The notes: generated from the sequence alone by a model not told the origin. A stretch of DNA of 64,000 bases from an uncultured virus (IMG/VR IMGVR_UViG_3300037991_003250) (IMGVR_UViG_3300037991_003250); one strand, 5' to 3'; shown: positions 5,166 through 64,000, counted from the stretch's first letter. Numbers and translations are program-made.

Positions 5166-5220
5166 TTTGATTTTAGCGGTTTGTTGAAACAATTAAGAAG
5201 GGGAGAAAGTGGCCGGATAT

Positions 5221-28748: not shown

Positions 28749-28752
28749 AAGA

Positions 28753-39238: not shown

Positions 39239-42200
39239 TCACCCCACGAAGAACCATGTATTCGCGGCAACCCCAATATAGGTTCTCGCTGCATCATCAG
39301 ATATGGCGGTGTGGCTACTCGGAATGCTACTGTTGCTTGTTCCCAATCCGGGTGTTAAGTCTGAACCTGTATTGTTAATTATCGTATATTGTTGGCCTAC
39401 TTCTGCGGTTGCAGGTAGGGTAGGCGCACCGCTACCTGTTACATACACATACGAACCGGATTGTGCGTCAGTTAGTGTTGTTGTGCCTGTTATGGCTACT
39501 ACACTAATTTTGTTTGCTTTGGAAGCACCCGCTAAAACCACTTCTCCTGTTCCGCCCGGCGTAATTTCTATATCTTGGTTTTCACGCCCAATGTGTATTG
39601 TTCCGGGCGCACTTGAACCACCGCTTCTTAATTCTAAATCAACGCTCGCACTATCACATTTTATTACTTGTGGGTCGGTTGTTCCATCTAATCTAAAATT
39701 ATCAGCATATATTCTAAACTTTCTTGAGCCGCCGAGAGCGACACCTATTGTATCGTTTCCATCCCGATAAAATCCTGTATCGGTATCAGAAGAAAAACTG
39801 TAAGAAGGCGCACCTGCGCTACCGTCAGCCGCCGGAGATGCGGCAGGTCCGGTAGGACCAGCAGGTCCGGTTGGACCCGTAGGTCCTGTTCCACCAGCAG
39901 GACCCGTAGGTCCTGTGCTTCCATCCGAGCCGTCTGAGCCGTCTGAACCAGCCGGTCCGGTAGGTCCTGTTGGCCCCGTTGGTCCTGTTGGCCCCGTTGA
40001 TCCGGTAGGTCCTGCGGGTCCTGTTGGCCCCGTTGCACCCGCCGGTATAGAGAAAGCAAATACTTTTGCGGTGGCTGGACCGGAAGCAGTAACTCCTATC
40101 GGCCCTGTGCTGGCGGTCGGCGTTCCGAATCCTGCCGCCGCACCATCGCTACCGTCTGAACCGTCATCACCTGCTGGTCCTGTAGGTCCGGTAGGACCGG
40201 TTGGCCCCGTAGGGCCGGTTGGCCCTGTTGGACCTGCTGGTCCTGTTGGACCAGCCGCGCCAGCAGGAATACTGAAAGCAAATACCTTCGCTGTAGCAGG
40301 ACCGCTTGCAGTAACGCCTATTGGTCCGGTGGAAGCGGTAGGTGTTCCAAAGCCAGCCGCCGTTCCGGTTGGTCCGGTTGGACCTGTAGGTCCGGTAGGT
40401 CCGGTAGGTCCTGTCGAACCGTCAGATCCGTCACTTCCTGCTGGTCCGGTCGGCCCATTAGGACCTGTAGGACCGGTAGGACCGGTAGGACCTGCTGGTC
40501 CGGTTGAGCCGGTATTTCCTGTATCTCCTTTTGAAGCCAAAATATTCCAATAAGAAGCATTAGGTGGCTCTTGGTCGCTATGATTTGCCGTTGCTATAAA
40601 TGACGTTCCGTTATGTATAACCGCGTTATCAATAACATAACTTTTACTACTATTCCACGAACCTTCCCACGTTAAACCTTCCGGCCCTGTAGGACCGGTA
40701 GGTCCTGTAGGACCGGTAGGTCCTGTAGATCCCGTTGGTCCAGCAGGACCGGTTGAACCCGTAGGACCGGCAGGTCCGGTTGAACCGTCAGAACCGTCAG
40801 AACCGTCAGAACCAGCAGGGCCGGTTGGACCTGTGGGTCCTGTGGGTCCTGTAGGACCTGTGGGTCCTGTCGCGCCCGCCGGAATACTAAACGCGAATAC
40901 TTTAGCGGTATCGGGGCCGGATGCAGTAACACCGATAGGTCCGGTGCTTGCAGAAGGAGTGCCGAATCCAGCCGCCGCGCCCGCAGGACCGGTAGGACCG
41001 GTTGGTCCTGTTCCACCAGCAGGGCCGGTGGGTCCTGTAGCACCATCTGAACCGTCAGACCCGTCTGAACCAGCAGGACCACTTGGCCCTGTCGGACCTG
41101 TAGGACCCGTAGGGCCAGCAGGACCGGTAGGTCCGGTAGGCCCTGTTGAACCGGTATCTCCTTTATCACCGGTTCGGGCAAAGGTTACGGCAATATCTTC
41201 ACCGTCTGAAAACGGCGAAGAAGCCGATGAATCAACGGCACTTACTGTAATATCAAAGTAGCCGCTTTCTTCTGTAAGAGAAGATATAGTGAATAAAATA
41301 AATTGGCTTGAGTCGGTTAAATTACTTATCTTTACATGACCTTTAATAGTCGAAGTTGAATCGTCAATCGTGCGAAGGAATGATTGAATATCTGTGCCGT
41401 CTAAATCAGAATCGTCAATGTAAATACCTGTTGCAGTATTTTGTGTGGAGTTATCAAGCCTCAGTTTTCCTGCGGTTGGGTCAGCCTTACTTGTAGTAGT
41501 GCTAAAATCATATTTGAAAGTAGCACCACCAAAAGAACCTTGAGGCCCTGTAGGTCCTGTAGGTCCTGTAGGTCCTGTTGAACCGCTTGGCCCTGCTGGT
41601 CCTGTCGGACCTGTTGGGCCGGTTGAGCCATCTGAACCATCCGAACCATCACTTCCTGCCGGACCACTTGGGCCTGTGGGTCCTGCCGGACCGGCTGGTC
41701 CTGTTGGCCCTGTTGAACCTGCCGGACCACTTGGGCCTGTAGGACCGGTAGGTCCTGTTGCCCCTGCGGGTATAGTAAAAGCAAACACTTTTGCTGTATC
41801 TGGGCCGGATGCGGTTACGCCAATAGGCCCTGTTGAAGCAGTAGGCGTATCAAACCCTGCCGCCGCACCTGTTGAACCCGTAGGTCCGGTAGGACCTGTA
41901 GGACCCGTAGGACCTGTTGAGCCATCGCTACCATCTGAGCCATCACTTCCTGCTGGACCACTTGGACCCGTTGGCCCACTTGGTCCTGTAGGTCCTGCTG
42001 GTCCGGTTGGACCCGTTGGTCCTGTATTACCTGTGTTTCCTTTGGAAGCAAGTATATTCCAATAAGAAGCGTTTGGCGGCTCTTGATCGCTATGTGAAGC
42101 GGTTGCGATATATGATGTGCCGTTGTGTATAACTGCATCATCAATAGAATAAGTAGTCGAAGAAGACCATGTGCCTTCCCATATAAGACCTTCCGGTCCT

Positions 42201-44080
42201 GTGGGTCCTGTCGGCCCTGTCGAACCCGCCGGACCTGTTGGGCCCGTTGGTCCTGTTGGGCCAGCCGGTCCTGTGCTACCATCCGAACCATCACTTCCAG
42301 CCGGTCCTGTAGGACCACTTGGTCCTGTTGGTCCTGTAGGCCCTGTTGGGCCTGTAGCCCCCGCAGGTATAGAGAATGCGAAAACCTTTGCGGTGTCCGG
42401 CCCGCTTGCCGTTATGCCTATTGGTCCTGTGCTTGCTGATGGTGTTCCAAACCCTGCGGCTGGTCCTGTAGGACCTGTAGGACCTGTTGAACCATCCGAC
42501 CCATCCGATCCATCTGAACCTGCCGGACCTGTGGGTCCTGTTGGGCCTGTAGGTCCTGTAGGACCTGCCGGACCTGTTGCACCGGCTGGAATAGAAAAGG
42601 CAAAAACCTTAGCGGTATCGGGGCCACTTGCTGTTACACCAACAGGGCCGGTCGAAGCAGTAGGCGTATCAAATCCTGCGGCTGGTCCGGTTGGGCCACT
42701 TGGTCCTGTAGGGCCTGTTGCGCCCTGTGGTCCTGTCGGGCCTGTAGCACCATCTGAGCCATCTGAACCATCACTTCCAGCAGGACCGGTAGGTCCTGTA
42801 GGGCCTGTAGGACCTGTTGGTCCGGTTGGCCCACTTGGTCCTGTTGGTCCGGTTGCACCAGCAGGAATGCTAAATGCGAATACTTTAGCCGTGTCCGGCC
42901 CACTTGCTGTTACACCTATTGGACCTGTGGATGCAGTAGGTGTATCAAAACCTGCCGCCGCGCCGGTAGGTCCTGTGCTTCCCGTAGGTCCTTGAGGACC
43001 GGTTGGACCTGTTGCGCCCGTATCTCCTGTAGGCCCTTGAGGACCGGTTGGACCACTTGGGCCTGTAGGCCCTGTTGGTCCTGTAGCACCGGCTGGAATT
43101 GTAAAAGCGAAGATTTTTGCAGTATCGGGGCCGCTTGATGTAATACCTATTGGTCCTGTTGAAGCGGTTGGCGTTCCGAATCCGGCGGCACTTCCTGTTG
43201 GGCCTGTTGGGCCTGTCGGTCCGGTCGGCCCTGTCGAACCATTAGAACCCGCAGGGCCGGTAGGCCCTGTCGGTCCGGTCGGTCCGGTCGGTCCGGTTGC
43301 GCCGGTATCACCCTTAGCAGATAATACCGCCCAATAATCACCGTTAGGTGGCTCTTGGCCGGAATGCGCCGCCGTAGCAATATATGAATTTCCATTGTGA
43401 GTAACTGCATCGTCAATAGAATAAGATGTGCCGCTACTCCACGCACCCTCAAAGACTAATCCTTCCGGTCCTACTGCACCCGCCGGACCTGTAGGTCCTG
43501 TCGGGCCGCTTGGTCCTGTTGGACCTGTAGGTCCTGTCGGACCGGTGCTTCCTGTGGTTCCTGTTGGTCCTGTATTACCTTGTGGTCCGGTTGGGCCTGT
43601 CGGACCGGTTGGTCCTGCTGGACCCGTAACACCAACAGAAGAAAAGACTACCCATGCGTCAGATCCTACTTTACGAATAGTAGCGAGAGAATATTGGGCG
43701 ATACTTGTTGTTCCGCTAACTGTAACACCACCACCTGCGGCAAGTGTTAGTGTTCCAGCCCCTTTGTTCATAACCTTTAATTCGGTTTTATCAACAGGAA
43801 ATGCAACACTACTATTTGGTGGAACGGTAAAAGAAATAGCCGAGCCTTTGTTAGCCATTACTACTCGGCCTTCGTCTGTGCGTGTAAAGGTGTAATCATC
43901 GGTTTTATCAACAACGGGTCTTACATCAGCCGATTGTCCGGCGGTGGTGCTACCATCACCGAAGAAAACGAATCCGCTATCAGCATCCTTGAATAACTGT
44001 GCGGCGTGTGGTGTTACAGTCAGCCTATCGGCTTGTGTAGTAAAAAGAAGGTTTTTGTTATCCGTTAGAACATCAACCAT
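39239..44080 (-). CDS. Collagen-like fibre protein (1613 aa)
   Basis: Long Gly-Pro-Thr tracts interrupted by 8 AAGF.TP..STGP...KVFAF.IP modules and 3 CBM-like W..Y...D.V.HNG.SY modules. Confidence 0.92.
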
Positions 44081-44129: not shown

Positions 44130-45641
44130 TTAGTCGAATTGAATCCATATTGTCGCTTCCGCATCATTTAAGTCAGTAGTGCCGCTTTTTCTCCTAAGAG
44201 ATAATGTGTCGCCAGCGACAAAAGATAGAGAAGGAACATCCGTAACTTTTGAATTATTACTGTTTAATGTATTTGCCGCAAAAGAAATATCAACATCTGA
44301 TGTGCTACCGTCTGATGCGAGGGTTTTTCTTATTGTAAATGTATTATTTGCAGACCCGCTTATTGTTCCCGAAAAATGAAGGCTTATTGTATGCGGCGAT
44401 CCAGCGTAAGGCATAACGATTTCTGCGGGTGTAAATGCAACACCTGTGTTTGTGTCTAAAGAAGCCTTTGAATAATATAACGGGTGTAGTCTAAAGCGAT
44501 TAGTTACTAATCTTTCGCCTGTTCCGCCGTAAGCAGTAGGTAATAATTCATCTGTTCCGCGCACACGATAAATACCATCAGATATTTGTTGGAAATTCCA
44601 ATCACCGTTAATTATAGGTGGTTTTATTGTATGTATTTCTGCGGTATTAGTCGATCCATAATCAGCATTACCATAAAAACGACCGTTAATTACTAACTCA
44701 TTACAATTTAAGCGAGTATTAGCATTTATTTTATAGTAATAAGATGTAGTGGTTGATTCTTCAATTACCAATTTATTATATTTAGCCGTAAATAAAGATG
44801 TGCTAACTCCGAAATTTGTATCGCCTGTTACGGGTAATGTTGAGTTAGCAGTAGGTCTTAAATGTAAGCATGAATAACCCCAATCAAAAGTATTATTGGC
44901 TATGTTTTGTATAGCACCGTTGATTTCAAATATTTTATTTTTATCATCATGTGTTTTTGAAAGAGGCTGGACTCTAACATTAGGGTTATTATTAAAATTT
45001 AGACTTAACATAGATACATAACCAAAGTCTGTATCTTTTGTTAATTTAGGTATAGTATCAGCGTCATAATTTTGATAATCGTTAGAAGTTACAAAAGTTG
45101 TAACACCGGAAGCAGGATCGATTTTAACATTAGGATAAACACCGTCTGCTAAAGAAAATTCAACCGCACCACCATTAACAAAAGAAAATGTGGTATTTTC
45201 TCTTGACGCTTCTCTATCAAAAATACCATTTGTGCTTGTATCGAATTTACTATCTGTAGTATATCTTACGGCGTATTTACTTGTTGAGCCACCTGCGTTA
45301 TCGTAATTTGCGCCTGTTGGTGTTGTTTCAAAATTAAATACTGTTCCACTACCCATTGAAAATACTTCTGCTTGTTCAACAATCAAACCAACACCATTTG
45401 ATAGCGTTATTGTTTGGCCGCTAAATTGGACTAACGGTGTTGCACCACCAAAAATAGCATAATCATTATGCACATGGATTGCTTGAAATCCTATATCACC
45501 TAAATTAGTCATATCACAAATACGGGTGCAAACACCATCAAAATGCACTTCATCAGAAGCAGTAGGTAAAACACCGCCGCCCCAATTTGCGGCCACGCTT
45601 GCATCTGTTGATGTGCCGCCAGCCCATTTAATTGTCGCCAT
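44130..45641 (-). CDS. Adhesin-like virion protein
   Basis: WAGG.STD.S..ANW....LP...D.V.F N-terminus; Asn/Thr-rich. Confidence 0.55.
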   Translation of the reverse strand: MATIKWAGGTSTDASVAANWGGGVLPTASDEVHFDGVCTRICDMTNLGDIGFQAIHVHNDYAIFGGATPLVQFSGQTITLSNGVGLIVEQAEVFSMGSGTVFNFETTPTGANYDNAGGSTSKYAVRYTTDSKFDTSTNGIFDREASRENTTFSFVNGGAVEFSLADGVYPNVKIDPASGVTTFVTSNDYQNYDADTIPKLTKDTDFGYVSMLSLNFNNNPNVRVQPLSKTHDDKNKIFEINGAIQNIANNTFDWGYSCLHLRPTANSTLPVTGDTNFGVSTSLFTAKYNKLVIEESTTTSYYYKINANTRLNCNELVINGRFYGNADYGSTNTAEIHTIKPPIINGDWNFQQISDGIYRVRGTDELLPTAYGGTGERLVTNRFRLHPLYYSKASLDTNTGVAFTPAEIVMPYAGSPHTISLHFSGTISGSANNTFTIRKTLASDGSTSDVDISFAANTLNSNNSKVTDVPSLSFVAGDTLSLRRKSGTTDLNDAEATIWIQFD

Positions 45642-52499: not shown

Positions 52500-52641
52500 T
52501 AAAACGCTTTACTGCGGATTTATTGTTTATTTATTTTATTTCTTCAAAGATATGTAAGGGAAATAGAGGGGGAACAAAAATACCTTTGAAGAAAAAAAAG
52601 AATAATGGTAATCGTTATACTGCGACTCGTTTATTTTTTCT
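52500..52641. repeat. Palindromic AT-rich element, copy B (inverted relative to copy A)
   Basis: CTTCAAAGATA(52542-52)-N28-TACCTTTGAAG(52581-91); 52523-52558 is the reverse complement of 5101-5136 at 35/36. Confidence 0.85.
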
Positions 52642-52715
52642 GAGGCCGGAAAAAACATTGGAAATAATATGTGTTTATACTAACCTTTAATAAATACCCG
52701 AACATCGTTAGGTTC

Positions 52716-54125: not shown

Positions 54126-55614
54126 TACTAACTTTTCTATGGAGAGAAGCAGGAAGGACATTTCCTATTTCTATAAATGGCTCGGCTACACATGGGGTAA
54201 GCACATCGGAGAATGGATGGAGTTATATTCCGATAGAAAAGGTGCATCCGTTCATCGTGTCTGTATTATCGCACCGAGAGATCATTCCAAATCAACAACC
54301 CTTCGTGTTAAATTATTGCACCAATGCCTCTTTGAAAAGAAGGGTGATGGTTCGCCTTTTACCTGCTGGCTTATCTCAGCGAGTAAAGATACTGCCGCCC
54401 AAAGACTTGAGGAAATACGAGGCGACCTAAAAAAACACCCACAGTTAAGAAAATACATTAGCCCCTCTAAAGGCAACAAATTAGAATTGCATTTTACTAA
54501 CGGCGCATGGATTCGTGCTACATCTGTTGGTTCTGCGATTCGTGGGGCGCACCCTGCCTGTGTAGCATTTGACGATGTGTTGGTTGATTCAGACGATACC
54601 AGCCCTAAAGCCCTGCAATCATGGTATAAGAAAGCAATTATTCCTATGTTAAGCCCCGATTCGTGGTTTTACTGTGTGGGAACCCCAATGAGTATGGTTG
54701 ATTTATACCACACGGAAATGTTAGAAAACCCCGTTTGGAAATCAGCCGTGTATTCCGCTATTACTAACTATGATGAATGGCGAGCAAGTGATGGCGAGAT
54801 AGAACCCGAAGTGCTTTGGGAAGAATATCGAAGCGCGGCTTATCTTCTTGAGCAACGAGAAGGTATGGGTGAATTGGCTTTTGTGCAGGAGTATTTGTGC
54901 AGGGTTATTGATGACGAAGCCGCAGTATATCCGAGAGAGTTAGTAAGAAAACATCTCGACATGGAAGGAATATTCCAAACAGAAAAAGATGATAACTGCA
55001 AGTATAGTATTGGGTTTGACCCCGCACACGGTTTAGGAAAGGACTTTTCAGTTATGGTTGTCCTCAAGCAAGACCAAGAGGGCTTTATCCACTTTGTAAA
55101 TATGTGGCGGCGTAATGATTTCCCACCGGACAGACAAGCAGACATGATTATCGAATGGAATAAGAGATATGGTTATCCTGCCTTCGCATCCGAAGATGTG
55201 GGATTCCAGCAATTATACAAGAGTCTTATTGAGCAAAAGAATGCAAATGTGGATTATCGCGGTAGCAAAGTTAGCAACCGCACACTAAAACAAGGTTTGC
55301 TTAACAGACTTCGTGTTTGGTTTGAGCGGGAGTTAATTATATTCCCATACGGCGACCACAACACACGAATGCAAGTGAATACTCTCTTTGACGAATTGGA
55401 AACACACGCATGGAAAAACGGCCTCATTGAAGACTTAGGAAAACACAACGACTGTGTTATGGCCTTTGCACACGCAATAGACCAATTCCAAGCAAAGGAA
55501 TTTGAAATGCCCGTTATTATGAAGAAGGCGGAAGCCGGAGAATGGTTGGGCGGCTCTAAAACAAGACTAAATCGTGGGGCTAAAGGTATAGGCGGGAAGG
55601 TGATTAACAGATGA
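54118..55614 (+). CDS. terL: Terminase large subunit
   Basis: APRDHSKST, IRG, FDD, VGTP, QEYLC, GFDPA, HNDCVMA. Confidence 0.92.
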   Translation: MSDTNFSMERSRKDISYFYKWLGYTWGKHIGEWMELYSDRKGASVHRVCIIAPRDHSKSTTLRVKLLHQCLFEKKGDGSPFTCWLISASKDTAAQRLEEIRGDLKKHPQLRKYISPSKGNKLELHFTNGAWIRATSVGSAIRGAHPACVAFDDVLVDSDDTSPKALQSWYKKAIIPMLSPDSWFYCVGTPMSMVDLYHTEMLENPVWKSAVYSAITNYDEWRASDGEIEPEVLWEEYRSAAYLLEQREGMGELAFVQEYLCRVIDDEAAVYPRELVRKHLDMEGIFQTEKDDNCKYSIGFDPAHGLGKDFSVMVVLKQDQEGFIHFVNMWRRNDFPPDRQADMIIEWNKRYGYPAFASEDVGFQQLYKSLIEQKNANVDYRGSKVSNRTLKQGLLNRLRVWFERELIIFPYGDHNTRMQVNTLFDELETHAWKNGLIEDLGKHNDCVMAFAHAIDQFQAKEFEMPVIMKKAEAGEWLGGSKTRLNRGAKGIGGKVINR

Positions 55615-55898
55615 GAACGAAATTCGGACCAAAGAAAAGAAAGGAATTAGCCAACGATGCAATCGTAAAATTGTTTAACGAGGGCTACTTTGACGAATGG
55701 CGATTGGCGCGTGAAATCTCCGAACAAATCACAAAAAATATCCCCTCTCGATGGGGTAACTTTAGACCGGAAGCCGTTAGATTCGCTATGCTCAAAACAA
55801 AATTACCATTCGTAACACGCAATAAGCACCAAAGACTTGAATGGCGAGCCGATGAGGGGAATGAGGGGATCGGCTCAAATACAGATGAGCAAAAGTGA
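55611..55898 (+). CDS. Winged-helix-like basic protein
   Basis: WRLAREISEQI...PEAVRFAM...LEWR. Confidence 0.5.
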   Translation: MRTKFGPKKRKELANDAIVKLFNEGYFDEWRLAREISEQITKNIPSRWGNFRPEAVRFAMLKTKLPFVTRNKHQRLEWRADEGNEGIGSNTDEQK

Positions 55899-56169
55899 TT
55901 TAAAAAAATTTGTAAAAAATTTCGCGTGAGGGTAGCCATACCACAACGCCGGACTGCGGCTGATCTTTGGCGGCAAATTGCAGACCATAGCGGCGAGGGC
56001 GTATGGTTAGGCATGAGATGCAGGGGTGACCCCCCTTGAGTCCATCCAGCGAGGCCCACAGGGTGATTTTAGGGGTATTCCCCGATTATCTCCGCCGAGC
56101 AAATGATCATTGAATTTTCAAATCTCAATCGAGCCTTTCGGCCAAATCAAGAATTTGATTTTGAAAGGT

Positions 56170-56202
56170 GGGCTGGTGGCGGTTATCCGCCGCCACCAAC
56201 CC
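56170..56202 (-). terminator. GC hairpin after the 56216 gene
   Basis: GGGCTGGTGGCGG...CCGCCACCAACCC. Confidence 0.55.
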
Positions 56203-56215
56203 GATTTTATTTCGT

Positions 56216-57352
56216 TCAGACTTTGAACATAGACCAGCGACCGAGAACCGAAGTCGTCAATCGTGCCGTTTCGTAATTCTTGTTTGACTTATCCTTGAGG
56301 GTTGGGCTTAGTCCAATCCTCAAAGCATGAACCAAAGGTGCGACCCTTTGAACGTCAGCGATAGTCGCATCAACCACGCCTCTTTCAAAGCCAGCCTCAA
56401 ACACCCAAAACAGGAAGGTGAACGGTTCTCCGTTTGGGGTGGTTGCGTTGCCGATATATCGAACCATTTTACCAGCAATTGACTTCACGGTTCGCGCACC
56501 GCTTGTCGGTGCGATATCAATATCTAATTCCGGCACTACTAACCCGTTGGTTCTCTCGTATGCGAGAACGACTCTCGCGCCGGTCTTCTTCTGAACCTGC
56601 ACCTTGATGGGTTGGCGGTATTCTCCACCAATCAAGGCATAGGTCTTGAGGGTCGAGAACATATTGCCGCCGACTTCTCTTGATGACTCGACAACATCGC
56701 CGCCACAGGTCGGGCAACCCATGAACGGAGATGAGCCGAGCGGTAGCCATGATTCGGTTCCGCTCGGAGTATAGCAGCCGACACCATCGGCCACCTTTTC
56801 GCATACATATCTCGCACCCTGCTTAACCTGCTTAACCAATGAACGAGTTAATTTCTGTTCTTTGGTGTAGCCGTTGATGGCGTAAAGGTTGTTTTCTATC
56901 GCGTTCCCCCTGCTCAATTCAAACAGGACAGGCATTGACTCAAGAGGGCCAATGTTGCCTTTACCGGCCCACTTTACTAATTCCTTGATGCCGTCTGATT
57001 TAGCATTGTTTAGAACGACCTTGACCTTTCGGCCAATGGTTGAATGAAGAAGCCCCATTTGGCCCATTTCCACCACGTCAGCGAATGAAAACGGGGTCGG
57101 CCATACCGGAACATTTGCTTGAGGGCTAACTGCCTCAATTATTGCATCAATGTGGCTCGTCTTCTTTGCCTTGTTCTTTGGTGCGGCTTCGACCCTCTCC
57201 GAGAGAGCCTTAACCTTCTTCATCGGAAGAAGGCTAAGAGCCGCAACGATAAGGGATTTTAGCCACCCTATCGTTTTGACCTCAGCCGCCGCATTAACGG
57301 CGGTTGAGGCGTTCGTTTGTTGTGCCTCGTAGGTAATCGCATCGGATTCCAT
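56216..57352 (-). CDS. Hypothetical protein with central Zn ribbon (leaderless)
   Basis: TATATAC about 28 nt upstream of ATG 57352; YVC...GC...CPTCGG. Confidence 0.7.
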   Translation of the reverse strand: MESDAITYEAQQTNASTAVNAAAEVKTIGWLKSLIVAALSLLPMKKVKALSERVEAAPKNKAKKTSHIDAIIEAVSPQANVPVWPTPFSFADVVEMGQMGLLHSTIGRKVKVVLNNAKSDGIKELVKWAGKGNIGPLESMPVLFELSRGNAIENNLYAINGYTKEQKLTRSLVKQVKQGARYVCEKVADGVGCYTPSGTESWLPLGSSPFMGCPTCGGDVVESSREVGGNMFSTLKTYALIGGEYRQPIKVQVQKKTGARVVLAYERTNGLVVPELDIDIAPTSGARTVKSIAGKMVRYIGNATTPNGEPFTFLFWVFEAGFERGVVDATIADVQRVAPLVHALRIGLSPTLKDKSNKNYETARLTTSVLGRWSMFKV

Positions 57353-57447
57353 GAGCCGAGCGACTTCATGCGTAGTATATATGGCGTTCGTTTTTCGTAA
57401 CTCCTTTGGTTTGATTTCTTGAGGGTATGAATCCAACGAAATTTTAG

Positions 57448-57745
57448 CCGTTACAATAATAATAATATTTCTCGGATTTTTATTAAATTGCTCGATCTGA
57501 GCGTTACAATAATTTTTCCCACAGAAGCGTTACAAAAAAGAAAATCGTTACAATAAATAGAGTTACAATAAAAAAAGTTACAATAAAAGAAATCCGTTAC
57601 AAAAAAAGAAATCCGTTACAAAAAAGAGATTTGGGCGGGGCGTTACAATGATCAATGTAACGTGAGGCGGCGTTACAAAACGCCCCACCCGTTGAGTGTT
57701 ACAATTAGTATATGTTACAATTAAGCGGGGTTGGATCGTTACAAT
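57448..57745. repeat. GTTACAA box array, block A (~13 copies)
   Basis: Direct GTTACAAW copies separated by A-tracts. Confidence 0.9.
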
Positions 57746-57769
57746 TTTTTGGTTTCGGATTTTTCTTTT

Positions 57770-58195
57770 TCATTCTGACTTCACCCCGAAGTAGTTATCC
57801 CAATCTGTAAGGGATAGAGGCTGCCGACAGGCGGTGCAGTTAGGGCACTCCCATATTGGATATGATTCAAGGGTTTCTTCACCAGCAAGGCCGAAATAAT
57901 CGGTTTCAACGGACATTTTGAAATCGTGCTGGTTGTCTTTGCATAGCACCGGCCCAATCTTTTCTGATGGCTCAAATTTAACTTCCCATGCGATTCCGTC
58001 TTCGTCTTCGTATGTGTAAGACTTGATGATTTTACACGCCTTCGTAAAACGGCGTGATTGGAATGCGGGATTAGGGAAGGCCATGATGAATTGATAGAAT
58101 GCGTCATGTATTGCTTGTTGAATTGCGTAGTCCTTAGAGGGGTGATTAGCAACAATCTCAGCCATTTTGTTGAAGTCGCGGCGTGAGAGCATCAA
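57770..58195 (-). CDS. Hypothetical early protein
   Basis: SRRDF..MAEI...NPAF...RF.KAC motif seen in phage early proteins; C-terminal CPNC. Confidence 0.65.
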   Translation of the reverse strand: MMLSRRDFNKMAEIVANHPSKDYAIQQAIHDAFYQFIMAFPNPAFQSRRFTKACKIIKSYTYEDEDGIAWEVKFEPSEKIGPVLCKDNQHDFKMSVETDYFGLAGEETLESYPIWECPNCTACRQPLSLTDWDNYFGVKSE

Positions 58196-58665
58196 TTCAC
58201 CCCCCGACTCTCTAACTCGTCTTCAATGTCGCAGGAATAGCCTTGAACGCGCACCCCTTCCAATACGCAAGTTATCTCGGCTTGATGGTCGCAAGTGCCT
58301 TCAAACACGCAAGAACAGGTCTTGATTATCAATTGCTTGATGTTATGATAGAGGGAAAGTGGGTCGCTATCTTCGCCAGCGTCTAAGTCGGAGTCCTTGC
58401 GGATATTTTCGCGGGTAGCCGCTCTCAAGGAATCAATTTCTTCGTCTTCTCCGTTCCAGCCGTCATCGTCTTTGATTTTGGTTGTGATAATTCGCCCGTT
58501 GCATCCTGCTTCGGGGCATATTTCCCCGAATGAATCGGGGCTATTGTTAAGGTCGGTATGAACGAAATATTCGGTCATACCCCACATTTCGTCACTCGGT
58601 GTGCGGTAGTATTCGCGGTGACCGTGTTTCGCATACATGAAGGGCGTTGTGTCTGATTTTTCCAT
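58192..58665 (-). CDS. Acidic Cys-containing hypothetical protein
   Basis: SD GGGGTGG before ATG 58665. Confidence 0.6.
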   Translation of the reverse strand: MEKSDTTPFMYAKHGHREYYRTPSDEMWGMTEYFVHTDLNNSPDSFGEICPEAGCNGRIITTKIKDDDGWNGEDEEIDSLRAATRENIRKDSDLDAGEDSDPLSLYHNIKQLIIKTCSCVFEGTCDHQAEITCVLEGVRVQGYSCDIEDELESRGVN

Positions 58666-58820
58666 CAAACCACCCCCAAAACGCAGGTGCATAATGTTAG
58701 CACCGCATCTGTGCGACCAACGCACGAATTAAAGTCAATTGTTAGGGCCTCATCTATGGGGTTGCATCCGCAAGCCATGACCCGCCGTTAGCATTGTTGC
58801 TTATCAATACTATGCTAATT

Positions 58821-59195
58821 TATTGTAACGGTTATTGTAACGCAAATGATCATTTATTGTAACGCTCAAGCAGTAGCGAAGCGATCATGTTACAATAATT
58901 TCGTAACGCGGATCTAAGCCCGTTACAATAAAAAAAAGTTACAAAAAAAGCGTTACAATAAAAAAAAGTTACAATAAAAAAGTTACAATAACTCAGACCG
59001 TTACAATAAAACCGGTCTATAATATATGTCCTACCGTTACAATAAAAAAAATACCTAAAAAAACCGTTACAAAAAAGAGAAAAAAAGAGTTACAAAAAAC
59101 AAGCCAGATCTGGCGTTACAATAGCACGACTAAGGGAGTTACAATTAACCCCCTTAGCCGCTTGCGTTACAATCAATGATCTTCTGTTACAATAT
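58821..59195. repeat. GTTACAA box array, block B (3 reverse + ~14 forward)
   Basis: Orientation switch at 58857-58895. Confidence 0.9.
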
Positions 59196-59621
59196 TCAGT
59201 CTAAAGTGGAAATGTATGAATGAACGAATTTGAATCTGTATTTGTAAATCGTAGGCCAATCGCGCAAATCATAGTAATGTCTGCTGACTTTAGTTACAAT
59301 CATTTTTGCTTCGTGTGGTATTGAAGAATATCTCAAATTTATGATTTCTGGTGTCGTCTTTGATTTGCCCCCATCAGCATACATTCCTTCTTCACCTTTC
59401 AGTATGTTTTCAACATAACAGCAGATATCCGCCATCCTATCCGCGTCATCATCGTCTAAGTCGTTCCAATCCATTTGGTCTTGCTGGTGAATTACCTTGA
59501 ATCGGTTATTTATCCCATCCCATGATTTTGCGAGTAATCCTTCCTCGCTACGAGCGAGGATAACCCGCTCATACTCTCTATTGCCGTTCTTCTCCTTGAT
59601 GATGCCCCAATGCAACCTCAT
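59196..59621 (-). CDS. Hypothetical protein (leaderless)
   Basis: Promoter variant AAACCACCGAAGCACTTATAT, with TATA 28 nt before ATG 59621. Confidence 0.65.
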   Translation of the reverse strand: MRLHWGIIKEKNGNREYERVILARSEEGLLAKSWDGINNRFKVIHQQDQMDWNDLDDDDADRMADICCYVENILKGEEGMYADGGKSKTTPEIINLRYSSIPHEAKMIVTKVSRHYYDLRDWPTIYKYRFKFVHSYISTLD

Positions 59622-59663
59622 AATTAGTCGTAGGCGGGGTTGGATATAAGTGCTTCGGTGGTT

Positions 59664-60497
59664 TATTGTAACGGCATATTTCGATCTGGATTTAGCAGTT
59701 ACAATAATTTCGTAACGCATGATCGCTTTTTACCGTTACAATAATTCAGATCAGGGGATCGGGAGTTACAATAACTCGGACAACCACCTATATAACCTTT
59801 TAGTTACAATAACTCGGACAGGGAGTCTATAAAGATTACCCGTTACAATAGCGATTCTCGCCGGTTTAAGTCTTTCGTTTGTAACACCCAATTTCATTTG
59901 TGGTAAACAGGCTCGCAGTATAGCGTTTTTATGTGGTGCGTTACAATAATTAACAAAATTGGCGATTTTGCGGCCCAAGTGGGGGGGTTGAGCGTCATTT
60001 TTTCGTTACAATAAATTTAAATCGATCTACGCAATTTTTCCCCAAAAAAACGCAAATTTCGCAGGGTTACAAAAAAATTGTAACTTTTTGATTTGTAACT
60101 ATTTTACCCTTATTGTAACGTTTTATTGTAACATCCGTCTGTTACAATTATTATTGTAACAACGACTTTTTTTTGTAACTCCCCAAATCAAATAGTGCAA
60201 AAAAGAAAGCGAGTGTTGTAAATAAAACTGACTGAAAAAAGTAAAGCCGATGTGCTTAATGCACTAAGGGTTTTTATTGTAACTTAATGTGGGTGAATGC
60301 AAATTATTGTAACTATTATTTATATCTTCGATCCTGAGCGTTACAATAAAAAATCATGGTTTTTTCCTGCGTTACAATAAGCCGTTACAAAAAGAACCAC
60401 CCGTTACAAAAATGTTCATGCGTTACAATATATAAATCTCGATCTAAACCGTTACAATATACCGAGAGAAATTTTCGCATAAAAGATCCGTTACAAT
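59664..60497. repeat. GTTACAA box array, block C (~26 copies, mixed orientation)
   Basis: ~830-bp non-coding gap between divergent genes. Confidence 0.9.
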
Positions 60498-60563
60498 AGG
60501 GCTAAAATTAAGTGAGAATGCCGCGTAGTAAAGTATATATAGTAGTTATTTCCTGCTCTAATT

Positions 60564-61085
60564 ATGAGAAAAGTCATACCTACGCGCATATGTCCTATAT
60601 GTAGTGGAGAATTTGAGGCAAATACGAGAGGCCGACCACGCCGCTTCTGTTCTCCCGAATGCACCACCAAAGCAAAGAATACTAACTTTCAACGCTATGA
60701 AAGATTTGACCGGCCAAAGTCAAAGGGCGGTCGGGGAAATAAAATCCTTCGACCGTGTGGGTGTCCTACTCGCCAACATAAACCCGATTGCGTTTTATCT
60801 CGCGCATTCCATGTGTATGAAAATTCCAATGCACACCATGACGCAATATCAGCCAGCAACGCTTCAAAGATTGCTAAAGCAAACAGAAGACTTGAGGCTC
60901 AACGACTACGGGCGGCAAACAAGCGAGCCGCCGCAATCAAGAAAGCCGGAATGATTCCGGTTGATTCAATCAGTAAAAATCTCCCTATCTATATCGCGTG
61001 TGTGAAATGTAAGGGGCGAGGCCCGATAAGGGATTTCACCGCATGGAAGCAAGCAGACAGAACGGGAGTATGTAAGAATTGTTAG
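60564..61085 (+). CDS. Multi-Zn-finger basic protein
   Basis: CPIC...F...GRPRRFCS.EC, CGC...H..C, CVKC...CKNC; TATATATA upstream. Confidence 0.7.
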   Translation: MRKVIPTRICPICSGEFEANTRGRPRRFCSPECTTKAKNTNFQRYERFDRPKSKGGRGNKILRPCGCPTRQHKPDCVLSRAFHVYENSNAHHDAISASNASKIAKANRRLEAQRLRAANKRAAAIKKAGMIPVDSISKNLPIYIACVKCKGRGPIRDFTAWKQADRTGVCKNC

Positions 61086-61096
61086 GAGATGAAAAG

Positions 61097-61429
61097 ATGG
61101 ATAGACACATTGAGAAAATAGACGAATTGAACAATGAAGAATTGAGGATGATTGCTCATGCGTTAGGCGACAAAGAATCCCGCATGAGAGAATTGGCTCA
61201 CGATGAGAACCACTTGAATTTATGTGCGGTTCGGCAAATAAGATTAGGTAAAAAACAAGGCCGCGATTACGCTAAGGAATGCGAGGAACGAAATAATCAT
61301 CGAACATGGTTCGTTGAAATGATGGAATTTTACAAGTCGGAACGCAAAAACCAATACCTACAAGACGCGAGAAAATACAGGAGATTATCAAATCTGTTTT
61401 TTGATGTAGTCTGTGAAAGAATAGAATAA
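61097..61429 (+). CDS. Hypothetical helical protein
   Basis: SD AGGAG before ATG. Confidence 0.6.
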   Translation: MDRHIEKIDELNNEELRMIAHALGDKESRMRELAHDENHLNLCAVRQIRLGKKQGRDYAKECEERNNHRTWFVEMMEFYKSERKNQYLQDARKYRRLSNLFFDVVCERIE

Positions 61430-61454
61430 AGATCACCGCTAAAAGATATAAATA
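61428..61454 (+). promoter_or_regulatory. Conserved viral early-type promoter
   Basis: AAAGATCACCGCTAAAAGATATAAATA; ATG 61476. Confidence 0.85.
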
Positions 61455-61475
61455 CTAAGATAAAGAGGACTAATT

Positions 61476-61811
61476 ATGGAAAGAAGCCACACCAACGCAA
61501 CCGTCTTACACTTGATGAACAAGACCCAAAAATTCATGGGCATTCATTCAAATGAATGTGATGCGATAGCCGCCTTTCATATCATAACGGGCGAGCAATT
61601 CAATTATGTTTTCGGCCATACTTTCAAGGGTAGCCGAAACCACCTTTCTTTTGATATGTGCATTGAGTCTATGATAAGAAACGATTTCCCGCGCCTAAGT
61701 GATGATGAAGTCAATGATATGTATTTCAAAGTCATGGAAGTGAGAGATAAATTGCGAGCGTTTAGAGAGAACCTATGCCTTGAGTATGGGAACGACAAGC
61801 AGGACTCGTAA
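61476..61811 (+). CDS. Hypothetical protein (leaderless)
   Basis: Single-gene cassette bounded by promoter and terminator. Confidence 0.65.
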   Translation: MERSHTNATVLHLMNKTQKFMGIHSNECDAIAAFHIITGEQFNYVFGHTFKGSRNHLSFDMCIESMIRNDFPRLSDDEVNDMYFKVMEVRDKLRAFRENLCLEYGNDKQDS

Positions 61812-61819
61812 TCGGATCA

Positions 61820-62012
61820 TTGTAACGGGTCGGTGGGGTTAGAACCCCATCGGCCCTAAATTTTTTTTGTCTATCAAAAATTATTGTAACGGATCTGGAT
61901 CCGAAATTATTGTAACGCTTTGTATCGGCCAGCACGAAGCGTTACAAAAAAAGATGATCTGAAAAAGTTACAATAAAAAAAGAAAAAAGCGCGTTACAAA
62001 AAAGTTACAAAA
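61820..62012. repeat. GTTACAA box array, block D (3 reverse + 4 forward)
   Basis: Lies between terminator and next promoter. Confidence 0.88.
61827..61868 (+). terminator. Hairpin plus T-tract terminator
   Basis: GGGTCGGTGGGGTT-AG-AACCCCATCGGCCC then TAAA-T8. Confidence 0.75.
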
Positions 62013-62031
62013 AAACAAATTCAATCTAAAA

Positions 62032-62058
62032 AAAGATCACCGCTAAAAGGGTTAAATA
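62032..62058 (+). promoter_or_regulatory. Conserved viral early-type promoter
   Basis: AAAGATCACCGCTAAAAGGGTTAAATA; ATG 62080 opens a 38-aa ORF. Confidence 0.85.
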
Positions 62059-62508
62059 CTAAGAAGAAAACGGAATATCATGGTTGAAACATACACCAAA
62101 GAGGATTTACCCGCGACCGACCTTAACGAATGGGGCTACCCATCCGATGACTATATGCACATCGGCAACGGATTATTCGTAAAGAGGGGAGAGTAAAAAT
62201 TATGAATCAGACTAAGATATTTTACACGGACATGACTAAAAAAACAGACGCTAAAACCTGCAAGATTCACCACCCAAAAATTAGCGGTGAAAACCGTTGC
62301 CGGATATGCAATAAAAGCAGGAGTGAGGAAGAATGAATGAGGAAGAAAAAATAATCGTGGATGCTTTAAGGTATTATGCCGCAGGTTTGAAAATTGCTTA
62401 TGATAGACAATTCACTTCACATCACCCCCCCAACAAACCACGCTCAGAAAGAAATTTAATCAAGTCAAAAAAATGCCGAGATATTATTAAAAAAATGGAG
62501 AGTTAAAA

Positions 62509-62709
62509 ATGAAAGTTAGATGTAGTAATTGCCTATTTGGATTTCATGTCGCCGCGCCCGATAGAAGCGTTTGGAATAGAAACGGTAAATTTGATATTAT
62601 CACCTGCTTTGAATGTGGCTTCGACAATTGGAGAAAGATTCCTCATTCAGACAAAAAGATTTCAAAGAGGCCCGACAAAATAACCACCGTTGTTTTGATT
62701 GACGATTGA
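62509..62709 (+). CDS. Small Zn-ribbon protein
   Basis: CSNC...CFECG; SD GGAG. Confidence 0.6.
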   Translation: MKVRCSNCLFGFHVAAPDRSVWNRNGKFDIITCFECGFDNWRKIPHSDKKISKRPDKITTVVLIDD

Positions 62710-62714
62710 TCTAT

Positions 62715-62741
62715 AAAGATCACCGCTAAAAGGGTTAAATA
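62715..62741 (+). promoter_or_regulatory. Conserved viral early-type promoter
   Basis: Identical 27-mer to 62032-62058; ATG 62763 opens a 44-aa Cys-rich ORF. Confidence 0.85.
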
Positions 62742-62893
62742 GTAGTAATGAGAGGGTTAATTATGGGAGAAGAAGTCCATACAGAAGGAATGCTGACTAA
62801 TGAATTATTTAGGCGAATGATGGAAGCCGAGAATTGGTGTTGTGGCCGATTCTGTGATGTTCCAAATTCCCCTTTATGCACCTGCGAGGATAA

Positions 62894-63289
62894 GTGAAAA
62901 AAATGTATATGAAGATAGATGAACAAGATTTTGTAAATGCCTTTGATAGAATGAATCGGTCTAATAATTTCTCGGTGATTGGTCGCCGTATGTTATTTGA
63001 ATACTTGACCGGTGTTGAAGATGATGTGGGAGAAGAAATGGAGTTAGATGTAATCGCATTCTGTTCTTCTTTTACCGAGTATGAATCAATTGATGAATAC
63101 TGCGACACCTATGATTCAAGCCCGCTCACACGCGACCGCTTGAACCATGCCGTGAAAGAAGAAGATATTGACTACCTAAGAGAAATCTTAGGTCATAAGC
63201 ACCATGCCGTTATAACATGGTTTAATCACCCATTAGTGGGTTATGGTGGCTACCAAAGGGTTTTCAGAATGATTCTGAGTGATTTCTAA
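62894..63289 (+). CDS. Acidic hypothetical protein of a widespread phage early family
   Basis: F..AF....R..NFS..G...LFEYL...E...GEE.ELDVIA.C..F.EY. Confidence 0.65.
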   Translation: MKKMYMKIDEQDFVNAFDRMNRSNNFSVIGRRMLFEYLTGVEDDVGEEMELDVIAFCSSFTEYESIDEYCDTYDSSPLTRDRLNHAVKEEDIDYLREILGHKHHAVITWFNHPLVGYGGYQRVFRMILSDF

Positions 63290-63522
63290 TGCTTTACACA
63301 AAAAGATACGATAGAAAAACTAAGACCTATCATTACAGAAAGCACGATGGCTCAAATGTCTTTTACGGATTTAGGGCCGGTTTTGGTGGTGATGAAGAAT
63401 GGACTTTTTGCTCGGCATTAGATAATTCGGCTTTTGGTATGCCTTCATTTGAGCAGGGAGTCTATACAATGATGGGGTATAAAGATTTCATGGTTTGGAT
63501 GGAAAACAGAAAGAGGCCATGA
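63289..63522 (+). CDS. Hypothetical protein
   Basis: TAATG-coupled 77-aa ORF. Confidence 0.55.
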   Translation: MLYTKRYDRKTKTYHYRKHDGSNVFYGFRAGFGGDEEWTFCSALDNSAFGMPSFEQGVYTMMGYKDFMVWMENRKRP

Positions 63523-63529
63523 TTGGTTA

Positions 63530-63695
63530 TTGTAACGCCTCGCCGTCTAAATGGCGGCGGGGCTAAATTTTTTTTTCGGCTAAAAAATTATTGTAACGCT
63601 TCTGGATCGATCCCGCGCCAGCGTTACAATAAAAATATATCATAACTCGTTACAAAAAAAGAAATCCAAAAAAGAGTTACAAAAAAGTTACAAAA
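63530..63695. repeat. GTTACAA box array, block E (2 reverse + 4 forward)
   Basis: Same architecture as block D. Confidence 0.88.
63537..63576 (+). terminator. Hairpin plus T-tract terminator
   Basis: GCCTCGCCGTC...GGCGGCGGGGC then TAAA-T9. Confidence 0.7.
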
Positions 63696-63702
63696 AAAGA
63701 AA

Positions 63703-63729
63703 AAAGATCACCGCTAAAAGATATAAATA
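63703..63729 (+). promoter_or_regulatory. Conserved viral early-type promoter
   Basis: Identical 27-mer to 61428-61454. Confidence 0.85.
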
Positions 63730-63750
63730 ATATGACGATGAGGATTTATT

Positions 63751-64000
63751 ATGTCGAAAGAAGACTACTTCCTATGCACATGGAATGGAAATGAAATAAT
63801 AGAATTACACACGAAAGAAAGCCTTTGGGAACAATACAAAGAAACGGGTTTGTTTGAAGATGATGATTGGTTTTATGAAACGGAAAATATAGAAAACGTA
63901 AGCCTAACGGATTTGATGAGCCTATGTATCTATAATGAAGATAAAGATACGGTTCATTACAACGATAATATGACTATCATGTATGTCGGAAATGATTTTC
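63751..64000 (+). CDS. Acidic hypothetical protein, 3'-truncated
   Basis: MSKEDYFLCTW... open to the window end. Confidence 0.55.
   Translation, partial: MSKEDYFLCTWNGNEIIELHTKESLWEQYKETGLFEDDDWFYETENIENVSLTDLMSLCIYNEDKDTVHYNDNMTIMYVGNDF

Follow-up and report, generated by a model that had tools for sequence, protein, structure and literature searches.

Phage master regulators that bind repeated operator words are already known, from the stoperators and from the SPbeta repeated element (SPBRE). The stoperators of Cluster A mycobacteriophages such as L5 and Bxb1 are short asymmetric sites with many intergenic copies per genome, and the protein bound to them halts transcription besides repressing promoters (PMC6550527, PMC9283540). 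As these sources describe them, the motif variant is particular to each phage and tracks the binding protein (an HTH immunity repressor of temperate phages), and the sites are dispersed genome-wide, one per gap, mostly in a single orientation relative to transcription. SPBRE, bound by the master repressor MrpR, is a phage-specific repeat at the promoter regions of many operons that was recognised in silico long before its binder (PMC10516654). It is a 15-bp element at ~9–10 promoters, one each, its binder is a recombinase-fold repressor of a temperate phage, and in that account it comes without dense arrays or fixed-spacing inverted pairs. The promoter-early stem-loop (PeSL) cassettes of T4-type phages are small units of terminator and promoter that recur among the small early genes of a hypervariable region and, as described there, lack an array of an extra asymmetric word and a lineage-specific code (PMC2839356).

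The window analysed here is a 64,000-nt stretch of a ~68-kb uncultured marine tailed phage, whose family is without a cultured member. Like stoperators, the word repeated in it is a short asymmetric site with many intergenic copies and is specific to each phage lineage, and a candidate binder co-diverges with it. Unlike stoperators, its copies are mostly packed into arrays, their orientation is that of the genome strand, and the candidate binder is a zinc-ribbon protein; the ORFs put through PHROGs or Pfam scans (not every small one among them) include no integrase, repressor or partition family. Dense arrays and fixed-spacing inverted pairs also distinguish the locus from SPBRE. Two strong terminators and eight promoter-like boxes in a hypervariable region recall PeSLs, although the boxes do not resemble sigma-70 promoters and the arrays come in addition.

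Iteron systems (lambda O, P1 RepA, pSC101) place Rep monomers on direct repeats and dimers on an inverted-repeat operator, so that one half-site serves in both arrangements, as it does here. Iteron specificity co-varies with the protein, and GATC clusters lie beside iterons in P1 and oriC. Known iteron systems have ~3–14 sites at one or two loci, whereas here 70 sites form five operon-interleaved arrays; direct repeats and A/T runs are present, and no initiator was recognised among the ORFs scanned.

Five polar arrays of one word

The window holds 74 copies of TTGTAAC/GTTACAA (F/R) against 10.2 ± 3.5 expected, and 70 of them lie within 57450–63693 (6.3 kb), spread over five intergenic arrays (Table 1). 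All but one of these 70 are non-coding, the exception falling in an ORF. The full word is an asymmetric ~11-mer, about CGTTACAATAA followed by an A-run. With 52 R and 18 F copies in the arrays, orientation tracks the genome strand and not local transcription, R prevailing upstream of leftward and rightward genes alike, and every array is convergent in polarity around a relatively GC-rich junction. The arrays are positioned at a divergent early control region, the first ~1.8 kb downstream of the terminase gene. Array 1 is flanked by two ORFs on the minus strand, the 406-aa ORF (Table 1) and one at 57770–58195.

Promoter-like elements accompany the arrays. The element AAAACGCTnTACTGCG is kept across the family, and in the window it lies inside a 61-bp F→R junction. 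In one relative (L159) the proximal copy of the word precedes TATAGT by 17 nt in every cassette read; in another (L202) all five cassettes read have, after the last copy, a constant stretch of 21 nt and next a AAGTATATATACC box. The rightward box in Table 1 has further exact copies starting at 62035, 62718 and 63706, and copies with one or two mismatches at 769, 2486, 3756 and 10154. Only two of the eight GATCACCGC promoter boxes are preceded by an array (Array 4 is upstream of the box at 62035, Array 5 of that at 63706), and in the window terminator, array and promoter box form a recurring cassette. The count of sigma-70-like promoters in the array region is not above that in shuffles.

Table 1. 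Arrays, inverted pairs and associated features, in window coordinates.
Feature	Position	Strand	Description
406-aa ORF	56216–57436	−	Last gene of leftward block; second fast-diverging module protein
Array 1	57450–57744		13 GTTACAA, all R on + strand; no inverted pair
Array 2	58823–59192		3 F copies then 14 R; extra R copy at 59293 inside next ORF
Head-to-head pair A	58857–58895		N25 spacer, GATC inside
Array 3 (block C)	59666–60496		26 mixed-orientation copies, divergent control region; contains pairs B and C, also 15-bp and 61-bp F→R junctions and tail-to-tail pairs 60066/60078 and 60141/60154
Head-to-head pair B	59666–59704		N25 spacer, GATC inside
Leftward promoter-like element	59905–59946	−	TTGTAA-N18-TATACT then GCGAGCCTGTT; −35-like hexamer is an array copy
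Head-to-head pair C	60307–60346		N26 spacer, GATC inside
Zinc-ribbon gene	60564–61085	+	Basic Cys-rich protein, 173 aa, RGRPRR motif; first gene past Array 3
Conserved promoter-like box	61431–61456	+	GATCACCGCTAAAAG-N3-TAAATA
Array 4	61820–62010		F copy, intrinsic terminator with T-run, 2 F, pair D; 4 R in all
Terminator in Array 4	61827–61856		Intrinsic, with T-run
Head-to-head pair D	61910–61947		N24 spacer without GATC; arms reach 11 bp
Array 5	63530–63693		F copy, intrinsic terminator with T-run, F, pair E; 4 R in all
Terminator in Array 5	63537–63563		Intrinsic, with T-run
Head-to-head pair E	63591–63629		N25 spacer with GATCGATC; arms reach 13 bp

Inverted pairs at the left edge of the arrays

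The sequence-only reading had pointed to an inverted unit of fixed geometry, repeated five times, and the unit is real: five of the seven adjacent F→R junctions have spacers of 24–26 nt (pairs A–E). Start-to-start distances at the seven junctions are 32, 32, 61, 15, 33, 31 and 32, the values of 61 and 15 being two off-spacing flips in block C that the same reading had correctly set apart. Shuffles predict 0.02 matches of TTGTAAC-N15-45-GTTACAA and the window has seven, five of them these pairs and the other two non-adjacent combinations in block C, ending at 60141. With seven gaps drawn from the arrays' own gap distribution, P is 0.002–0.008 for at least five of seven junctions falling within 3 bp.

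The proposed extension of the arms to TTATTGTAACG/CGTTACAATAA holds for most arms but fails for some. The spacer core is variable, as had been said, with a mean pairwise identity of 0.51 against 0.42 ± 0.09 in shuffled spacers; identity peaks in D–E, the sole pair at 0.72, and the other spacers are largely unrelated. Units A and B have an identical 21-nt right flank in common and D and E a left flank, so the five units are paralogous and are not counted as independent events. At the pairs a few F copies stand to the left and many R copies to the right, heads facing the junction. The inverted pairs are not the whole object: they bound, on the left, direct-repeat arrays that are much larger, and they are the version that one lineage has of a feature of the whole family.

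Words and geometries in related phages

Relatives were collected through the large terminase (TerL). Of 38 loci linked to the terminase and at least 9 kb long, 22 carry an 8-mer with at least 15 copies, and the word varies by lineage: at least 12 different words, with an nTACAAA core common to them, include CGTTACAATAA, AGTTACATAA, GGTTACAAAAAC, TGTTACAAAAC, AACCCTACAAAA, TGCCTACAAAAC, AACTACATAACA, TCTACTACAAAT and others besides. There are 40–100 copies per genome in the family. Relatives that carry a different word turn up in the same samples.

Preferred geometries are sharp, tail-to-tail at 11 or 7 bp and head-to-head at 33, 34 or 36–38 bp according to lineage. A tail-to-tail geometry of 11 bp is found 7–10 times in each of L148, L159, L204, L230 and L237, and one of 7 bp 15 times in L170. 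Head-to-head spacing is 33 bp in 10 of 13 cases in L202, whose word differs from that of the window, 33–35 bp in five of seven in the window, and 36–38 bp in L148 and L174; it is variable in G004/G005 (36, 41, 60) and G006 (11–54). Three lineages have no inverted copies (0 F among 20, 24 and 19 copies). Since pairs are variable or absent in some lineages, the inverted pair is dispensable for whatever the arrays do.

GATC sites were likewise compared. They had been reported in four of the five spacers, and they are indeed present in A, B, C and E, while D is without one and has GGATCTGGATCC just upstream. Between 57437 and 64000, 26 of 27 GATC are non-coding; the 2241 bp of the arrays contain 24 (shuffles, 7.0 ± 2.6), a density of 10.7 per kb against 1.62 per kb elsewhere. 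GATC thus lies within or beside the sites and is enriched over background, as at the regulatory sites of Dam/GATC systems (pap, agn43, SeqA-type). The hint of methylation sensitivity gains from this confinement to non-coding DNA and loses from the relatives, 16 of 19 related genomes or loci with the same kind of arrays having no GATC. Because most array-bearing relatives are without it, GATC is a lineage-specific add-on, outside the core mechanism. The window lineage carries an extra lineage-specific putative methyltransferase, and GATC confined to the arrays together with this putative methylase makes a testable case of newly recruited methylation control.

A swapped module and its candidate regulator

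Most proteins of the window are 85–99% identical to those of G004/G005. The stretch at 56.1–62.1 kb is without homologs there, except for the zinc-ribbon ORF (35–39%) and the 406-aa ORF (31% over 106 aa), homologs of the latter being confined to the closest relatives. L202 and L174 repeat the pattern, with TerL 95% and the zinc-ribbon protein 60% identical. The hypervariable part of the genome coincides with the array region, and the arrays sit within a swapped early-gene module, ending just upstream of the zinc-ribbon gene.

We tentatively prefer to read TTGTAAC/GTTACAA as the recognition sites of a phage-encoded, lineage-specific DNA-binding protein, and the arrays as high-density operator arrays that would control early operons; both the binding and the function are what we infer. 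The word differs between phages with 95–98% identical terminase, so the binder would not be a host factor. To judge from gene position and divergence, it is most likely the zinc-ribbon protein, encoded directly downstream of the largest array. In 24 pairs with TerL at least 95% identical, zinc-ribbon identity is 77–96% in the 10 same-word pairs and 38–61% in the 14 different-word pairs, a co-divergence that comprises only two independent contrasts, the whole module swapping together. This ORF is the sole intramodule ORF widespread in the family (19 loci, with HMM matches in 18), and in the 14 loci fetched with the protein 79–100% of array copies are upstream of its gene. Relative to the zinc-ribbon gene and the terminase strand, 13 of 14 lineages have an R majority, irrespective of which way the local genes run. 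The predicted structure is mediocre (pLDDT 69.5) and gave no significant match in a fold search, and the match to Pfam zf-CGNR is sub-threshold (22.3 bits, where the cut-off is 24). Across the window, G002, G004 and G005, the word is tracked just as closely by two further proteins, those of the 406-aa ORF and ORF 5564–6349. The latter encodes an acidic protein of 261 aa, 99% and 94% identical within word type and 26% between, which had no family match in a profile scan and looks non-DNA-binding; it adjoins a P-loop protein (6331–7677). Changes of word are not followed by the winged-helix ORF 5209–5583 of the replication block, in which G004 and G005, despite having one word in common, are only 66% identical.

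Under the operator reading, the regulator would be made early and would then fill the arrays. One array copy would overlap the −35 region of the conserved leftward promoter (59946–59917). Protein bound at Arrays 2 and 1, inside the leftward transcription unit, would block RNA polymerase, and at Arrays 4 and 5, between a terminator and the next rightward promoter, it would insulate or tune that promoter. The five pairs would be head-to-head double sites with centres ~three helical turns apart, marking the left edge of the arrays. The 'dimeric binding or nucleation site' of the sequence-only reading fits here, given an asymmetric, highly enriched and lineage-specific word, preferred inverted geometries in several lineages, and the link to the fast-diverging zinc-ribbon gene. 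Enrichment and intergenic placement, the module swap and the contacts with promoter-like elements also favour this reading. Orientation by genome strand, unlike that of known roadblock operators, speaks against operators, as do the variable or missing inverted pairs of some lineages, the few promoter boxes preceded by an array and the unremarkable count of sigma-70-like promoters.

Alternative explanations

The arrays could instead be replication origins, which we consider unlikely: iterons for a phage initiator, whose head-to-head junctions, with a T-rich half on the left and an A-rich half on the right, would load two opposed helicases, as at dyad origins. Convergent polarity around GC-rich junctions, GATC clustering and a position at the divergent early control region would all suit origins, as would the divergence with the word of ORF 5564–6349 beside the P-loop protein, given that initiators and the specificity of their iterons commonly change together. 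The number of separate arrays (five in 6.3 kb) and of copies per genome is, however, far above known origins, the winged-helix ORF fails to track the word, the 261-aa ORF is acidic and without a family match, and array copies stand at fixed distances from promoter-like boxes.

It is less likely still that the arrays are mainly recombination substrates, that is, repeated regulatory cassettes shuffling early genes in the manner of PeSLs (PMC2839356), with a spacing inherited by cassette duplication and not selected. Their hypervariable setting, the recurrent cassettes and the flanks common to A/B and D/E would be expected of shuffling; moreover, G002 has one additional 26-bp unit in Array 4, strain variants in contigs swap 49 bp at 58837–58887, and one contig links the box at 61446 to that at 62715, the short side being 21 nt. 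Duplication alone is nevertheless inadequate, as the paralogous units keep arms and length while their spacers are unrelated, and the 33-bp geometry arises again, ten times, in L202 with a different word. Nor can the arrays serve for exchange between close relatives, which have different words.

It is improbable that the copies are polar signals read by a DNA-handling machine (packaging, genome entry, a translocase). One-way reading along the genome would explain the constant strand bias, with its R-majority in 13 of 14 lineages regardless of local gene direction, and the arrays do start close to the terminase gene. Against this, the word changes though the terminase (95–98%) and an adjacent 95-aa winged-helix-like protein are nearly identical, opposite-orientation copies occur in every array in most lineages, and contigs assemble through the array region without ends. 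A site-specific inversion (Hin/Gin/Fim type) or excision switch at the pairs, possibly GATC methylation-sensitive, which had been suggested from the inverted arms, constant spacer, variable core and GATC in four of five spacers, is very improbable, as no recombinase family matched among the ORFs scanned in the window and in the 4.2-kb gap, a 24–26-nt spacer holds nothing to invert, contigs of four runs show no strand-changing joint (a weak point, as contigs can miss rare forms), and there are array-bearing relatives without GATC or without inverted pairs.

Implications for the phage family

What differs here from repeated operator words already described is the scale, 40–100 copies in polar arrays with set inverted geometries, and that the word shifts together with one small zinc-ribbon gene between phages 85–99% identical in most proteins. 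A more speculative and, as a whole, unlikely extension of the operator reading is that a virulent marine phage family uses a private DNA 'barcode', in which a fast-evolving zinc-ribbon protein would read a lineage-specific word of 10–12 nt, nucleate at the inverted double sites and coat the 40–100 early-region sites, giving early transcription or replication a self-specific switch that would also discriminate against close relatives infecting the same cell. If true, this would amount to heteroimmunity or incompatibility of a kind that needs no lysogeny. Should the pairing of word and protein hold, it would provide a ready-made natural series of orthogonal protein–DNA recognition pairs, a way to study the diversification of early gene control in abundant uncultured marine phages, and a possible mechanism of competition among co-circulating relatives.

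Word copies and inverted pairs in the window

The heptamer TTGTAAC (F) or its complement GTTACAA (R), here called the word, was observed 74 times in the window against an expectation of 10.2 ± 3.5, and five non-coding arrays hold 70 of these copies, one of which lies inside an ORF. On the plus strand, the array copies comprise 52 R and 18 F. Only four copies fall outside the arrays, against a chance expectation of about nine, and these include a lone tail-to-tail pair within an ORF. The positions of these and other features are collected in the table below.

Features of the window and of the adjoining gap
Feature	Position	Strand	Remarks
Arrays 1–5	57450–63693		intergenic clusters of word copies
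Pairs A, B, C, D, E	58857, 59666, 60307, 61910, 63591		TTGTAAC-N24-26-GTTACAA, head-to-head
Lone tail-to-tail pair GTTACAAAAGTTGTAAC	45088–45104		within ORF 44130–45641
Promoter-like box GATCACCGCTAAAAG	769, 2486, 3756, 10154, 61431, 62035, 62718, 63706	+	8 copies, 0–2 mismatches
Promoter-like element TTGTAA-N18-TATACT-GCGAGCCTGTT		leftward	in array 3, divergent control region
Conserved promoter element, ~40 bp	59898–59938		loose ends of G004-like strain at 59898 and 59938
Repeated non-coding segment, ~170 bp	52500–52670	+	first copy
Repeated non-coding segment, ~170 bp	5040–5200	-	second copy, inverted
Zinc-ribbon protein, 173 aa	60564–61085	+	candidate word binder
406-aa ORF	56216–57436	-	rival word tracker
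Acidic 261-aa ORF	5564–6349		rival word tracker; replication block
Replication-block ORFs	5209–5583, 10727–11095		
95-aa winged-helix-like protein	55611–55898		after terminase
2335-aa ORF	21759–28766	-	adjoins tape measure gene; no PHROG or Pfam match
Collagen-like repeat tail fibre gene	39239–44080	-	GC 55% vs about 42% for the genome
321-aa putative DNA methyltransferase	L005:416–1381	-	in 4.2-kb gap; PHROG E 2e-6 to 7e-5 (weak), no Pfam match

The five inverted pairs described in the sequence-only reading were confirmed, with spacers of 25, 25, 26, 24 and 25 nt, as were two further flips that do not follow this spacing (15 and 61 bp start-to-start, among seven adjacent F-to-R junctions). 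When gaps were drawn from the arrays' own gap distribution, at least five of seven junctions fell within 3 bp with P = 0.002–0.008. The spacers do differ in sequence, being mostly unrelated (identity 0.51 vs 0.42 ± 0.09 shuffled), with the arms retained. The units are paralogous, with a 21-nt right flank common to pairs A and B and a left flank common to D and E, so the pair data are evidence that the length has been maintained and do not count as five separate origins. Folding does not mark the pairs out as hairpins or terminators in any consistent way, as only D (z −2.7) and E (z −2.0) beat spacer-shuffled controls and A, B and C do not. A single promoter with the F copy as −35 and the R copy as −10 was rejected because 28 nt separate the two hexamers.

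The suggestion that the pairs are recombination sites found no support, as no recombinase was present among the ORFs scanned, and strand-changing joints, including inversion joints at the pairs, were absent from the contigs of four sequencing runs (in which strain variants were seen). Array growth by unit gain is seen in the related genome G002, which has an extra 26-bp unit, and parts of arrays are replaced in the strain variants. A strain resembling the related genome G004, with another word, is present in two of the four runs; in the contigs of runs X1 and X5, similarity to the window is confined to the ~40-bp conserved promoter element, on both sides of which they run on into G004-like sequence with the other word, so that two word lineages co-occur in the same samples.

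Phage identity and source

The window carries the genes of a tailed phage (tape measure protein, collagen-like tail fibre, portal and large terminase (TerL)), and also encodes a family-B-like DNA polymerase, a clamp loader and DNA methylases. The contigs of G004 and G005 break at the collagen-like tail fibre gene, as is expected of repeats in assembly. The genome map closes at about 68.2 kb, because the IMG/VR contig G003, 99.4% identical, bridges window positions 64000 to 1 over 4.2 kb. A DNA search of cultured phage genomes gave no match to the window, and at the protein level the best terminase identity among cultured phages is under 26%. A search of bacterial and archaeal genomes, one per species, turned up no relative and so pointed to no host; the sequencing runs containing the window sequence are marine metagenomes. 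No Rfam family scored above threshold on 56000–64000, and no tRNA genes were found.

Lineage-specific words and pair geometry

There are 213 terminase relatives in IMG/VR, and the analysis used the best 80 loci of these. Among them, 38 loci span 9 kb or more, and 22 of these have an 8-mer with at least 15 copies; most of the others extend only a short way downstream of the terminase gene. The word varies by lineage around a common nTACAAA core, being CGTTACAATAA in the window, G002 and G003, AGTTACATAA in G004 and G005, and GGTTACAAAAAC, GGTTACAATTTT, TGTTACAAAAC, AAGTTACAAAT, AACCCTACAAAA, TGCCTACAAAAC, AACTACATAACA, TCTACTACAAAT, AGACTACAAAA, TATCTACAAAT, GGGACAAAAA or AAATCCAAA in other lineages. 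Most proteins of the complete genomes G004 and G005 are 85–99% identical to those of the window, and the stretch at 56.1–62.1 kb is without a homologue in them, bar the zinc-ribbon ORF (173 aa, 35–39%) and a distantly matching 406-aa ORF. The same pattern is found between loci L202 and L174, where TerL is 95% and the zinc-ribbon protein 60% identical and the remaining module genes are replaced. Three replication-block ORFs are diverged from G004 and G005 (26–45%, with neighbours at about 90%), one of them winged-helix-like. Literature searches found no account of such arrays in marine phages, which is not proof of absence.

Preferred distances between word copies across the family, with the C of ACA as the reference point of each copy
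Configuration	Distance	Genomes or loci
Tail-to-tail	11 bp	L148 (7x), L159 (8), L204 (8), L230 (8), L237 (10), L202 (5), L240/L245 (5–6)
Tail-to-tail	7 bp	L170 (15x), L205, G007, L167
Head-to-head	33 bp	L202 (10/13), L179 (9–10)
Head-to-head	33–35 bp	window, 5/7
Head-to-head	36–38 bp	L148, L174
Head-to-head	25–29 bp	L240, L245
Head-to-head	61–63 bp	second class, many genomes

Tail-to-tail spacing is very sharp and takes one of two values by lineage, and head-to-head distances are narrow inside a lineage and different between lineages. The 61–63 bp class encloses a terminator-like hairpin in L202 and L179 and a leftward promoter in the window. Preferred distances recur in several lineages, but there is no universal spacing: head-to-head distances are 36, 41 and 60 bp in G004/G005 and 11–54 bp in G006, and three lineages have no inverted copies (0 F among 20, 24 and 19 copies). 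Because of this variation and these absences, the fixed inverted pair is a real and recurrent element of array design, but one that is specific to certain lineages and can be dispensed with.

Array anatomy and promoter-like elements

Every array on the genome has the same polarity, in which a few F copies lead through a head-to-head junction to many R copies, with an A-run after each R. The order in arrays 4 and 5 is F, a strong intrinsic terminator, one or more F copies, the pair, R copies and the box GATCACCGCTAAAAG-N3-TAAATA. This box is phage-specific and in excess of the 0.17 copies expected; all its copies precede rightward early or replication genes and are without a sigma-70-type −35, and an array lies upstream in only two of the eight cases. 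Array 3 takes up the divergent control region, and in its leftward element the −35-like hexamer is itself an array copy, and the core AAAACGCTnTACTGCG is conserved family-wide. No leftward terminators are predicted, and therefore arrays 2 and 1 may sit within a leftward transcription unit.

Among the relatives, each leftward gene cassette read in L159 has a tail-to-tail pair with its proximal TTGTAA 17 nt upstream of TATAGT. In all five L202 cassettes read, a constant 21 nt separates the last copy from the box AAGTATATATACC; in L202, L179 and L174, a word copy ends 12 nt upstream of TGTACT in the conserved element. As the offsets between copies and promoter-like elements are fixed, they favour a role for the arrays in transcription control. 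The ~170-bp non-coding segment that is present twice, inverted, aligns at 75% identity around a perfectly conserved 36-nt core (TTGTTTATTTATTTTATTTCTTCAAAG.TATGTAAG), and each copy contains two promoter-like boxes nTACTGCG.

GATC and possible methylation control

The GATC sites in the pairs had been read as a hint of methylation sensitivity. Between 57437 and 64000, 26 of 27 GATC lie within 2346 bp of non-coding DNA and one within 4218 bp of coding DNA; the density is 10.7 per kb in the arrays vs 1.62 per kb elsewhere, with 24 array sites observed vs 7.0 ± 2.6 in shuffles. Palindromes were counted in the window, G002, G004–G007 and 13 family loci. GATC is 0 in 16 of these 19 genomes or loci, among them G004 and G005, which are complete, and is numerous (124) only in the window lineage; AGCT is 0 in all 19, and GTAC and CTAG are missing from the window lineage. 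Avoidance of 4-mer palindromes in the 64-kb window is extreme, with 0 each for GTAC, CTAG and AGCT and 9 for ACGT. Both G002 and G003, which belong to the lineage with GATC, have the 321-aa putative methylase; G004 and G005, complete genomes free of GATC, lack it. GATC is thus a lineage-specific layer on the arrays, possibly one of methylation control, and not the core mechanism.

Candidate readers of the word

The zinc-ribbon protein is the only family-wide conserved ORF within the swapped module. In pairs of phages with TerL at least 95% identical (n = 24), it is 77–96% identical where the word is the same (10 pairs) and 38–61% where it differs (14 pairs), all of which reduces to only two independent contrasts. 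An alignment scan found 35 loci with this protein; of the 34 analysed, 23 have an 8-mer of at least 12 copies, although in three of these the 8-mer may belong to a promoter box instead of being a word, and one GA microsatellite was left out of the tally. In 14 loci studied in detail, 79–100% of copies lie upstream of the zinc-ribbon gene, and R copies are in the majority in 13 of them. The protein is basic; its sequence contains an RGRPRR motif as well as three clusters of Cys, and in its model a zinc ribbon at the C-terminal end is predicted with confidence. Foldseek of the model against the PDB gave no match at E ≤ 0.001, 13 longer or related members of the family had no Pfam match, and an atlas search returned only unnamed viral clusters; the family is small, with 39 clusters among 1.84 billion representatives.

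Rival word trackers are the acidic 261-aa ORF and the 406-aa ORF. A host factor is unlikely to read the word, because words differ among phages with 95–98% identical terminase. The 95-aa winged-helix-like protein was rejected as specificity factor, being nearly identical across three word types, as were ORFs 5209–5583 and 10727–11095, neither of which tracks the word.

Relation to known systems

Iteron plus inverted-repeat systems are among the closest in logic to the arrays. So too are the stoperators of Cluster A mycobacteriophages (PMC6550527, PMC9283540), SPBRE/MrpR of SPbeta (PMC10516654) and PeSL cassettes (PMC2839356). The window arrays appear to depart from each of the four in defining features. 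We class the arrays as a variant form of phage operator-array control, the mechanism of which we infer.
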